A stretch of 64,000 nt of DNA from an uncultured Gammaproteobacteria bacterium (GTDB lineage Bacteria; Patescibacteriota; Microgenomatia; Levybacterales; GWA1-39-11). Where the stretch lies: positions 64,557-128,556 of the forward strand of contig CAYPEN010000003.1 of the NCBI GenBank assembly GCA_964409875.1. Reading direction: 5' to 3'. The notes under the pieces were generated by a model. It did no database searches. It saw only the letters and a list, made by a program, of their open reading frames with translations, and was not told the DNA's origin. This document shows positions 2,614 through 63,694 of the stretch, piece by piece (position 1 is the first letter of the stretch; the number at the start of each line of letters is the position of its first letter). The position numbers were made by a program, and so were the translations under genes.

Positions 2614-3631
<1,018 letters not shown>

Positions 3632-15907: not shown

Positions 15908-16099
15908 GCGTTTATAATAGCACAAAAGACACTATTATTTGCTGTTTTGAGGCCATTGACTGACGATGTTCTTGTTGGTAGAATAGTTGAACCAAAGATT
16001 GAAGATTTTGGGGTGAAGCCAACTATTGCGCTACGCGCTGGGGTGGCATTCAAAGCTCTGAAAGAGCTTTTCATCCACCCCAAAAAATTTTATTTTTTT

Positions 16100-16173
16100 G
16101 GGGTGGTAGCTCAGTTGATTAGAGCGCTTCCCTGTCACGGAAGAGGTCGCGGGTTTGAGTCCCGTTCACCCCG
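16100..16173 (+). tRNA. tRNA-Asp (GTC)
   Basis: Folded by hand as a cloverleaf: acceptor GGGGTGG/TCACCCC, anticodon loop CTGTCAC. No encoded CCA. Confidence 0.9.
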
Positions 16174-16270
16174 CAAAAAAGCGTTGGGGTAATACAAACC
16201 GGTCACGGAAGATGTCGCGTTGTTAGCTTTGCTAACCAGCAAGCTGGAATGAGTCCCGTTCACCCCGCAA
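16174..16270 (+). repeat. Degenerate partial copy of the tRNA-Asp 3' half (CACGGAAGAtGTCGCG...GAGTCCCGTTCACCCCGCAAAA) with a ~30-nt insertion
   Basis: Direct comparison with the tRNA at 16130-16180. The final 23 nt are identical. Confidence 0.8.
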
Positions 16271-16968: not shown

Positions 16969-17016
16969 AGTTTTTCATAAAAATATATTTCCCGTGTGTT
17001 AAAATTGCAATTAAGC

Positions 17017-17157
17017 GGGAGTAGTTCAGTGGTAAGCTGCATTAAATGCATCTTGAAATTGCATCGCAATTTTAAGTAAGCTTGCCACCTCACATTAAAA
17101 ATTAAGCGGGAGTAGTTCAGTGGTAAGAAAAGCTTGCCACCTCACATTAAAAATTAA
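17017..17157 (+). repeat. Two tandem units of a tRNA-Gly 5' fragment (GCGGGAGTAGTTCAGTGGTAAG) each followed by a shared spacer (AAGCTTGCCACCTCACATTAAAAATTAA), directly abutting the intact tRNA-Gly
   Basis: Direct repeat inspection. Unit 1 carries an extra ~40-nt insert. Confidence 0.85.
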
Positions 17158-17229
17158 GCGGGAGTAGTTCAGTGGTAGAATGCTTCCTTCCCAAGGAAGA
17201 GGTCGCCGGTTCAAATCCGGTCTCCCGCT
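17158..17229 (+). tRNA. tRNA-Gly (CCC)
   Basis: Cloverleaf: acceptor GCGGGAG/CTCCCGC, anticodon loop TTCCCAA, T-loop TTCAAAT. Confidence 0.9.
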
Positions 17230-17276
17230 CACATTTTTTATTGAAAATCCGATTAAAATAAGCTACTCTTGAATTT

Positions 17277-31540: not shown

Positions 31541-31547
31541 TAGTTTG

Positions 31548-31619
31548 TGATCCGGCAGGGACTCGAACCCTGAACCCAAAGCTTAAAAGGCTTTTGCTCT
31601 ACCATTGAGCTACCGGACC
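31548..31619 (-). tRNA. tRNA-Lys (TTT)
   Basis: Minus-strand cloverleaf: acceptor GGTCCGG/CCGGATC, anticodon loop CTTTTAA. Confidence 0.9.
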
Positions 31620-31809
31620 GAACGTAGTGAGGGACGGGAGCTCAATGGCGAACGAAGTCAAGCTTGCTTGACGAAGTGTCTCATTGAGCAGCATGTACCC
31701 AAAACTCCGACCCTAATTTTACCAAATTCAACCTCATATACGCAAATGGGGCGTCAATTTGACAAAAAGTGATACTTTTACCATACTAAAGAAGAAGGGA
31801 GGTGAGATT

Positions 31810-63139: not shown

Positions 63140-63171
63140 CAGATAAGTATTAACCTGTGATTAATATTTGG

Positions 63172-63289
63172 AATGGCTAAAAGAGTTTGGTTATAGAATA
63201 ATTGTGAATGGGCGGCTAAACAAGTTTGGCCACCCAATAAGTGTGAATAGGGCGGCTAAACAAGTTTGGCCACCCAATAAGTGTGAGTA
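63172..63289 (+). repeat. Three tandem ~39-nt units (GGGCGGCTAAACAAGTTTGGCCACCCAATAAGTGTGARTA; first unit degenerate), each beginning with the 5' end of the adjacent tRNA-Lys
   Basis: Direct inspection. Units 2 and 3 are identical except for 1 nt. The tRNA-Lys 5' end GGGCGGCTA starts every unit. Confidence 0.85.
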
Positions 63290-63361
63290 GGGCGGCTAGC
63301 TCAATGGTAGAGCAATTCCCTCTTAAGGAATCGGTTCAGGGTTCGAGTCCCTGGCCGCTCA
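63290..63361 (+). tRNA. tRNA-Lys (CTT)
   Basis: Cloverleaf: acceptor GGGCGGC/GCCGCTC, anticodon loop CTCTTAA. Confidence 0.9.
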
Positions 63362-63424
63362 CCCAGCTAAGCTGGGTGGCAGCCCGCTTAGCGAGCTCAC
63401 TGTGATATTATCAATTAATGCACT

Positions 63425-63694
63425 ACGTATACATTCTTTTTTCACAAAAAGATAAACTCCTTATATACTGGTTTTACAAATGATCTTAAATCTCGTTTAA
63501 ACAAGCATCAAAATGGTTATGTGGCAGCTACAAAAAACAGAAGACCTCTTTCTCTAATATATTACGAGGCTTACAGTAATGAAGGTGATGCCAGAAGAAG
63601 AGAAACATACTTAAAAGGAGGTAAGGGAAAATCAGAATTGAAGATTCAGCTTGGTGAGACATTTATTGAAATTGGTTATGCAAAAAGAAGGTAA
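63425..63694 (+). pseudogene. Small GIY-YIG nuclease family protein with ACG where the ATG start is expected
   Basis: Translation gives TYTFFFHKKINSLYTGFTNDLKSRLNKHQNG...RRRETYLKGG, the classic ~90-aa GIY-YIG family. No ATG, GTG or TTG precedes it in frame after the upstream stop. Confidence 0.55.

Follow-up and report, generated by a model that had tools for sequence, protein, structure and literature searches.

We analyzed a 64,000-nucleotide stretch of DNA (hereafter the window, taken at its full length) from a member of Candidatus Levyibacteriota (Patescibacteria, Candidate Phyla Radiation), in which the tRNA-Gly(CCC) gene is preceded by repeated copies of its own 5' end. The segment 17015-17157 can be described as a two-unit array of non-coding 5'-end pseudo-copies of tRNA-Gly(CCC) lying in the gene's own leader, an assignment to which we give about an even chance. 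We propose, with moderate confidence, that the pseudo-copies arose when the tRNA gene underwent template switching or was partly duplicated, and that slippage between the 20-nucleotide repeats then amplified them. The lineage generates such units repeatedly, probably through DNA copying errors.

The original prediction had described tandem units, each made of a tRNA-Gly 5' fragment and a spacer, upstream of the intact gene. This observation is confirmed: the 20-mer GCGGGAGTAGTTCAGTGGTA is found in three exact copies in the window (at 17015, 17106 and 17158) and the 28-mer AAGCTTGCCACCTCACATTAAAAATTAA in two exact copies (at 17078 and 17130), none being expected from shuffled sequences (100 shuffles for the 20-mer). 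The first fragment (F1) starts at 17015, however, and not at 17017, and 20 nucleotides (nt) instead of 22 are common to the fragments and the tRNA, the former going on with AG and the latter with GA. As had been stated, the last spacer adjoins the mature tRNA 5' end, the second copy of the 28-nt spacer ending directly at position +1. That the same spacer would follow each copy holds for the second fragment (F2), where only AA is interposed, but F1 is parted from it by 41 additional nt (17037-17077) that fold into two small hairpins, A and B. Tandem Repeats Finder returned for 17078-17177 a period of 52 nt with 1.9 copies and an identity of 100%, and this perfect identity of the two 52-nt units points to recent slippage.

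In the hairpin of the unit, the 5' arm is made of a piece of the D-loop, GTGGTA, followed by AG, and the 3' arm of CTTGCCAC, with one G·U pair. The closing stem of the long spacer pairs 17029-17038 with 17079-17088 and thus employs the tRNA-derived GUGGUA; the long-spacer unit is predicted to fold at -27 kcal/mol (z = -3.3). The tail of the unit, about 17 nt, has some likeness to the tRNA-Gly 3' end and trailer (CTCACATT) and to the native leader (ATTAA). The former match covers 8/8 nt and is weak, an equal Smith-Waterman score being reached by 186/2000 shuffles.

The order tRNA-Asp, LysM protein, tRNA-Gly(CCC), small membrane open reading frame (ORF) and pyrG is kept in dozens of related genomes. 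Upstream of F1, the extended -10-like element TGTTAAAAT is, as read from the sequence, the only plausible promoter, although the sigma-70 consensus scan did not call it for want of a -35 box. An identical tgttaaaattgcaattaa directly adjoins the fragment-free tRNA-Gly of the closest relative, L001 (L numbers designate the other loci compared), whose PyrG is 94% identical and whose downstream flank is also common to the window. Because the sole plausible promoter precedes the units and the same tgttaaaattgcaattaa abuts the L001 tRNA-Gly, we place the units in the 5' leader of the pre-tRNA. The earlier idea of leader modules fits with this position, between TGTTAAAAT and tRNA +1.

Homologous units are present at the same tRNA-Gly locus in two other species of Levyibacteriota. 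One short unit is found in L005, while L007 carries a long unit with two hairpins and a third, shorter unit. The L005 and L007 fragments are identical at 20/20 positions to their own tRNA-Gly, which differs from that of the window at 5/20 positions. The junction and core GGTA/AG … AAGCTTGCC (the slash marks the break) are conserved across the tRNA-Gly units of the window, L005 and L007, and about 30 of the 37 nt of hairpin B and core are identical between the window and L007. Hairpin A is unrelated in sequence between these two, yet it is a hairpin in both. The spacers of L005 (fold z = -4.1) and L007 (z = -4.8) mirror the entire fragment as an imperfect reverse complement in which G·U pairs are numerous, the Smith-Waterman score against this reverse complement being reached by 55/2000 shuffles. 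The closest relatives (L001-L004 and L009) have an intact tRNA-Gly at this locus without any unit, and in L001 the flanks are the same. A further repeat was seen in L003, where three 21-nt tandem repeats (AAGCAAAGCTTGACTACGNTA) with AAGCTTG lie at ~2975-3040, about 160-200 nt upstream of tRNA-Gly.

The original prediction had considered a neutral slippage artefact probable if the repeat were absent at every other tRNA and confined to one strain. We found units at three other tRNAs of the window, as well as at tRNA-Gly, tRNA-Lys and tRNA-Asp of other species, which makes them more than a strain-private accident. Upstream of tRNA-Lys(CTT), each 40-nt unit consists of tRNA nt 1-9 (GGGCGGCTA), AACAAGTTTGGCCACCC and a 14-nt tail, and folds as a hairpin GGGCGGCUAAAC/GUUUGGCCACCC (-14.8 kcal/mol). 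Among the orthologous tRNA-Arg/tRNA-Lys spacers, that of L154 has four units, which fall into three kinds, and that of L158 a single one, the kinds being partly different. In L154 and L158 the break in tRNA-Lys comes after GGTA, with the hairpin GGTAAGG-GAAA-CCTTGCC; in the L158 unit (z = -3.75), the fragment corresponds to nt 1-20 and the hairpin precedes an inverted copy of nt 4-9. Altogether, close relatives vary in how many units they carry and of which kind (3, 4 and 1 at tRNA-Lys in the window, L154 and L158; 0 to 3 at tRNA-Gly), which points to a mutational hot spot with rapid turnover.

At tRNA-Lys(TTT), a direct copy of the D-arm (GCTCAATGAG) is followed by the palindrome CAAGCAAGCTTG, with AAGCTT, and by an inverted tRNA-Lys 5' part (CCATTGAGCTCCCGTCCC, the reverse complement of GGGACGGGAGCTCAATGG) that ends 11 nt from the tRNA. 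The tRNA-Asp leader comprises in turn a copy of tRNA nt 1-7 (16040-16046), a hairpin I (16052-16070), the anti-acceptor sequence CCACCCC (16075-16081) and an A/T spacer, which forms with tRNA nt 1-7 a 13-bp hairpin extending the structure to 16106. This structure is kept in five species (the window, L002, L003, L005 and L007), with compensatory changes at 9/19 predicted pairs and a copy that spans tRNA nt 1-7/11, and could represent an alternative-pairing leader. Its spacer has a weak match to the 3' end and trailer, with 81/2000 shuffles scoring as well by Smith-Waterman. Directly 3' of the intact tRNA-Asp, the window also contains a degenerate tRNA-Asp pseudo-copy (16186-16268) with GGGGT, anticodon-arm and T-arm/acceptor pieces, into which 23 nt are inserted. 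The longest LysM ORF begins within this pseudo-copy, and L007 has the same arrangement.

These units have common traits. A direct-inverted-direct layout is seen at tRNA-Asp, tRNA-Lys(CTT) and tRNA-Lys(TTT) of the window and at tRNA-Lys of L154 and L158. Across units, the break falls after the T-A that precedes a G in the tRNA (positions 8-9 or 20-21), giving the junction TA/AG, and the 3' arm of the hairpin begins with CTTG, which creates the same G·U pair and the junction/core TA/AG…CTTG(G)CC. The motif AAGCTTGC, which in the window adjoins tRNAs only, was observed, in the collected sequences, 10 times within 150 nt upstream of tRNAs against 0.86 expected (about 12-fold), several of these occurrences being related by descent. 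A metagenome scan with the pattern TAAGN{1,3}AAGCTTGCCRCN{14,22}GCGGG gave 57 matches, about the chance number for a pattern this short, and a single relevant sequence, L116, identical with L120. On this unrelated contig (L120 11708-11790), three tandem 25-nt units GTGGTAAGACAAGCTTGCCACTGAC run into the extended -10 element GTGGTAAAAT of a tRNA-Gly(UCC); they have exactly the hairpin arms of the window tRNA-Gly units and are without any tRNA fragment.

Concerning the origin of the units, the founding event would be faulty replication or repair of the tRNA gene. In a first scenario, the nascent strand would switch template at a small palindrome (…AAG…CTT…), copy the 5' segment backwards and restart upstream, thereby leaving the direct-inverted-direct layout; template switching is an established source of reverse-complement copies and hairpins (PMC8794818). 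In a second one, the gene would have been duplicated in tandem and the upstream copy would then have lost its interior. Smith-Waterman alignments of the spacers, either with the 3' end and trailer or with the fragment reverse complement, are too weak to separate these two origins. The unit would be old enough to be common to L005 and L007. Slipped-strand mispairing of the 20-nt repeats, probably aided by the hairpins, would keep the fragments identical to the live tRNA; the same slippage would have produced the second 52-nt unit and would let the array expand, contract and homogenise. We infer that transcription from the promoter at ~17000 includes the array in the pre-tRNA, from which RNase P discards it by cleavage at 17157/17158, and that each fragment, by pairing with the spacer that belongs to it, may hold the anti-D-loop segment off the real tRNA.

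Several observations argue against an origin by copying errors alone. The duplications in L005, L007, L024 and L032 start exactly at tRNA +1, which a simple copying error does not predict, and the window tRNA-Gly units display only 8 bp of complementarity between fragment and spacer (GUGGUAAG/CUUGCCAC). Hairpin B and core are ~80% conserved between the window and L007 while the flanking intergenic DNA is unalignable, pointing to constraint or recent transfer and not to neutral decay. Moreover, the L007 tRNA-Asp leader, the window tRNA-Gly units and the L120 repeats all have the arms GTGGTAAG/CTTGCCAC, G·U pair included. Independent errors should not converge on identical arms, and this recurrence thus suggests that the hairpin module is either under selection or able to move from one tRNA locus to another. 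The tRNA-Asp leader of L007 reads GTGGTAAG/CTTGCCAC(CCC), with CCACCCC being the complement of the tRNA-Asp acceptor strand; judging from its sequence, the CCACC found in the spacers at tRNA-Gly and tRNA-Lys seems to be left over from this anti-acceptor, which would again suggest a movement of the module between tRNA loci.

One could therefore wonder whether the units derive from a mobile element. In relatives, a family of 91-amino-acid (aa) GIY-YIG proteins (PF01541; 289 database matches, from Patescibacteria or Giovannonibacteria wherever the organism is named) is encoded directly 5' of tRNA-Gly in 7/7 distinct contexts (L024, L032, L057 and the loci of four individual proteins). The ORF has no stop of its own and terminates at tRNA nt 8-10 (TAG/TAA), so that RNase P cleavage would part it from its stop codon. 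A tblastn search also detected, at ~1628-1876 of L013, a less closely related GIY-YIG ORF that is fused to tRNA-Asp in the same way. Upstream of the GIY-YIG ORF, the 5' part of an old tRNA-Gly is split by a conserved module of two hairpins, 56-72 nt long (approximately TCCGCCAAAAG…TTTTGGCGGA and CCCGCC…GGCGGG) with compensatory changes at 8/23 pairs, which Rfam does not recognise as a group I intron. The module sits at anticodon position 35/36 in L024, L032, L057, L139 and L144, in the D-loop in L141 and in a nested copy in L057, and downstream in L148; in L144 and L141 it flanks the segment made of GIY-YIG and intact tRNA on both sides.

The tRNA alleles of these genomes also appear to be replaced frequently. 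The tRNA-Gly(CCC) locus displays at least three very different sequence types at the same syntenic position, in a mosaic pattern among close relatives (L001-L010 and others), and an intact tRNA-Gly is nested in another one in L006, as is a tRNA-Asp in L055; both features point to such replacement. Old 5' or 3' tRNA halves surround intact tRNAs in L006, L013, L024, L055, L067, L007 and the window (16186-16268).

On this basis, we tentatively consider a second assignment, possible though improbable, in which the units belong to a hitherto undescribed family of elements associated with tRNA genes of Patescibacteria. Its autonomous members would be the 91-aa GIY-YIG genes, in frame with a tRNA whose U8-A9-R10 serves as their stop, and the window units would be non-autonomous or decayed forms. 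The GIY-YIG genes would invade the D-loop or anticodon loop of a tRNA and regenerate an intact tRNA downstream, leaving the host viable; forms devoid of ORF would spread among the Asp, Gly and Lys tRNA loci and drive the replacement of tRNA alleles between species.

A related and rather unlikely explanation sees in the units the remains, or the non-autonomous offshoots, of a tRNA-targeting mobile cassette comprising a D-loop insertion, a replacement tRNA 5' part and an ORF since lost, tandem units then reflecting repeated insertion into the regenerated site. The GIY-YIG loci of relatives indeed have the topology of the window (fragment, hairpins, intact tRNA), the frameshifted GIY-YIG gene of the window adjoins the unit-bearing tRNA-Lys, and TAAG/(GG)TAAG direct repeats flank hairpins A and B in the window and L007. 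The mosaic tRNA-Gly alleles and nested tRNAs (L006, L055, L013) are the expected product of co-conversion during homing. The sharing of the hairpin core by different tRNA loci and genomes and the enrichment of AAGCTTGC upstream of tRNAs go in the same direction. A precedent also exists in SegB of phage T4, a free-standing GIY-YIG homing endonuclease encoded in a tRNA gene cluster, which targets a motif of tRNAs and propagates the tRNA genes next to it (PMC2330249). On the other hand, R1, a covariance model of the two-hairpin module, has no match at the tRNA-Gly units, and the GIY-YIG cassettes split tRNA-Gly mainly at anticodon 35/36 instead of nt 20. The units have no ORF, terminal inverted repeat or dispersed copies, their spacer occurring at a single locus in 64 kb, and the nuclease activity and specificity of the GIY-YIG family are putative. 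Furthermore, the 3' arm of the hairpin follows the D-loop of each host tRNA (A-U in the window, G-C in L005 and L007) and thus looks locally templated, not imported. The original prediction had listed the scar of a 5'-targeting element among its explanations: such an origin keeps the low probability given above, but the hairpins of the relatives' GIY-YIG loci have no match in the units.

Another hypothesis, which we regard as unlikely, is that the units form a selected 5' leader. An anti-tRNA arm could pair with an upstream decoy or with the nascent tRNA and tune its folding or its processing by RNase P; another possibility is that, once RNase P has cut, the hairpins would protect the upstream LysM mRNA at its 3' end. 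The decoy or regulatory tRNA halves listed in the original prediction are likewise a reading of low probability. Supporting this idea, the five species mentioned above keep the two hairpins of the tRNA-Asp leader with their compensatory pairs, one hairpin pairing tRNA nt 1-7, and the closing stem of the tRNA-Gly units has one compensatory pair, U-A in the window and C-G in L005/L007. Hairpin A persists despite its unrelated sequence, many stem differences preserve G·U pairs in the sense strand, and the core is conserved where the flanks are not. However, the closest relatives do without units at an intact tRNA-Gly, and unit kinds and numbers turn over fast. Template switching alone yields multi-base "compensatory" changes without selection (PMC8794818), and the covariation, drawn from 2-5 sequences, has little statistical power.

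It is very improbable that the units are reiterated promoter modules, each starting transcription at the next fragment or tRNA. Every spacer does contain TAAAAAT 4 nt ahead of +1 and AAGAAA 17 nt further upstream, and the equivalent L120 repeats end in a good extended -10 element (GTGGTAAAAT). The consensus scan for sigma-70 promoters (-35/-10, spaced by 16-18 nt) found none in the units on the + strand, however, which goes against the reiterated promoter of the original prediction; the equivalent spacer of L005 and L007 is without such an arrangement, and the tRNA-Lys units sit within a tRNA-Arg/tRNA-Lys spacer fed by an upstream promoter. A terminator scan found none in the units either.

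Two independent short-read assemblies from Logan (SRR11845619 and SRR11845634) are 100% identical to the window through unit 1; since both match it, unit 1 is independently confirmed, a confirmation which covers unit 1 and not the number of short units. The short-read contigs break within the repeat, ending at window position 17107, with another one beginning at 17148. Although these assemblies break there, a tandem structure created by the assembly is extremely improbable in view of their agreement on unit 1, of the homologous units carried by genomes of other species and of a 52-nt period shorter than the typical read length. At the tRNA-Lys(CTT) repeat, a short-read contig from the same strain also terminates inside the repeat.

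We also considered other identities for the units and set them aside. An integrase attachment (att) duplication was rejected because the copies correspond to tRNA 5' nt 1-20 and are only 32-71 nt apart; no recombinase-like ORF was noticed near the units among the ORFs of the 12-22 kb region, two of which were scanned with Pfam. An array of clustered regularly interspaced short palindromic repeats (CRISPR) would not have two identical 28-nt "spacers", nor a repeat that is a tRNA prefix with the tRNA itself as third copy. The original prediction was thus right to see 5' and not 3' tRNA fragments, and to discard an integrase att duplication, a CRISPR array and an insertion sequence remnant. Rfam, at the gathering threshold and at E <= 10 on the window and the locus, as well as on 12 related loci, matched the tRNA family only, which sets aside known RNA families including group I introns and ribozymes. 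BLAST of the units against phages and plasmids gave no match. Membership in the GIY-YIG/two-hairpin tRNA-Gly cassettes was rejected since the units contain no ORF, let alone one reading into the tRNA, and R1, run unfiltered over the window, found nothing at 17015-17157, its best match (E = 0.05) being at tRNA-Asp. A dispersed palindrome of the repetitive extragenic palindrome (REP) or miniature inverted-repeat transposable element (MITE) type does not account for a spacer present at this locus only in the 64-kb window, nor for duplications of varying length (6, 9, 10, 13, 20 and 34 nt). A split or intron-containing tRNA was excluded, as a complete tRNA follows the units and the fragments contribute nothing to it. 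The reading of AAGCTTGCC as a remnant of GIY-YIG coding sequence (GAA-GCT-TGC in L032) was set aside, its support being limited to a 9-mer. An RNA-templated origin, in which all duplications would start at tRNA +1, was given up as an explanation valid for every unit, because the window Gly and Lys repeats include leader nucleotides (ATTAA and a 14-nt leader, respectively).

A parallel can be drawn with several known processes. In the tandem-duplication-random-loss model of animal mitochondrial genomes, pseudo-tRNA remnants persist beside live tRNAs. Likewise, our units are partial copies next to an intact gene, and the tail of the window units resembles its 3' end, trailer and leader. Unlike the products of such duplication and degeneration, their first 20 nt are 100% identical to the live gene while the remainder is unrecognisable, their break recurs after the T-A of …GGTA/G or …CTA/G, and they are found in a bacterial chromosome, at several tRNAs. 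Integrases, for their part, duplicate the 3' part of a tRNA, with a kilobase-scale element carrying the integrase gene between the copies; Williams is said to have classified, in 2002, the attL/attR duplications of tRNA genes by integrases. Here again a partial tRNA copy accompanies an intact tRNA, but att copies are 3' parts, the mirror image of the closely spaced 5' parts of the window.

Quasi-palindrome template-switch mutations (Ripley/Lovett model; Mönttinen and Löytynoja 2022, PMC8794818) also produce reverse-complement copies and hairpins. The units resemble them by the inverted copy of adjacent sequence that forms a hairpin, by multi-base "compensatory" differences and by their local, short-range and recurrent nature. 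They differ from them by their tie to tRNA 5' ends, by a third direct copy that is the live tRNA, by tandem amplification and by a TA/AG…CTTGCC junction/core common to different tRNAs. As with SegB (PMC2330249), the GIY-YIG genes of relatives lie among tRNA genes and tRNA alleles are replaced between relatives. The proteins of Patescibacteria are distinct, however, being single-domain, 91 aa long and in frame with the next tRNA, with a two-hairpin module in the old tRNA copy and an activity that is predicted; the window tRNA-Gly units have neither an ORF nor a match to this module. Finally, group I introns have been described at position 35/36 of tRNAs of Patescibacteria (Nakagawa et al. 2026, PMC13011429). 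These are tRNA-gene insertions in the same phylum, and the two-hairpin module of relatives is also found at 35/36, but Rfam gives tRNA only, the insertions measure 56-72 nt, and the intact tRNA that follows makes splicing unneeded. Recurrent 5'-fragment/hairpin units in tRNA leaders fit the description of none of these processes. Our literature search on GIY-YIG with tRNA-Gly and on tRNA 5'-fragment repeats in Patescibacteria found no report of such units or of GIY-YIG-tRNA fusions.

Genes for tRNAs generally rank with the most stable and most sharply delimited genes of bacteria. In this ultra-small, uncultured clade, their 5' sides are the seat of recurrent partial duplication, hairpins, tRNA nesting and allele replacement. 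If the process is purely mutational, tRNA genes would be hot spots of template switching in genomes whose repair capacity is reduced, and annotators should be cautious with pseudo-tRNA fragments and assembly breaks. If the link with GIY-YIG is causal, it would reveal a new strategy of selfish elements, an intron-free invasion of an essential tRNA gene by rebuilding it alongside, which would account for the horizontal exchange of tRNA alleles. If the hairpins are selected, they would constitute a new kind of pre-tRNA leader structure.

Table 1. Location of the tRNA-associated units and of related features (window coordinates unless a locus is named).
Feature	Position	Strand	Remarks
tRNA-Asp leader structure	16040-16099	+	tRNA-Asp at 16100-16174; fold z = -4.6
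Extended -10-like promoter TGTTAAAAT	16997-17005	+	9 nt before F1; read from sequence; putative pre-tRNA start
F1 (tRNA-Gly nt 1-20, exact)	17015-17034	+	20/20 identity
Long spacer	17035-17105	+	Junction AG, hairpin A (17038-17050), hairpin B (17052-17076), 28-nt spacer (17078-17105)
F2 (tRNA-Gly nt 1-20, exact)	17106-17125	+	20/20 identity
Short spacer	17126-17157	+	AGAA + 28-nt spacer
Short-spacer hairpin	17120-17140	+	GUGGUAAG (17120-17127), loop AAAAG, CUUGCCAC (17133-17140); RNA fold
Intact tRNA-Gly(CCC)	17158-17230 (ARAGORN)	+	End at 17230/17229 across ARAGORN and Rfam; Rfam tRNA, 70.9 bits
tRNA-Lys(TTT) upstream structure	31620-31700	-	tRNA-Lys(TTT) at 31547-31619; fold z = -2.45
Promoter TGGTAAAAT of tRNA-Lys(TTT)	31716-31724	-
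tRNA-Lys(CTT) units	63170-63289	+	Three 40-nt units at 63170 (diverged), 63210 and 63250, in the tRNA-Arg/tRNA-Lys spacer; tRNA-Lys(CTT) at 63290-63363
GIY-YIG (PF01541) gene, frameshifted	63418-63694		Directly 3' of the unit-bearing tRNA-Lys(CTT); preceded by two hairpins
91-aa GIY-YIG fused to tRNA-Gly	L024 3097-3372; L032 3169-3444; L057 3126-3401		Also in L139, L141, L144 and L148

In the GIY-YIG gene of the window, which belongs to the protein family found in relatives, the first 13 codons are in another frame, which corresponds either to a frameshift or to an error in a homopolymer run. The 3' flank of tRNA-Lys(CTT) in which this gene lies appears to be an insertion hot spot. In L154, from a 93%-related genome, a large serine recombinase gene (265-2043) is found by tRNA-Lys(CTT), at the place where the window has the GIY-YIG gene.

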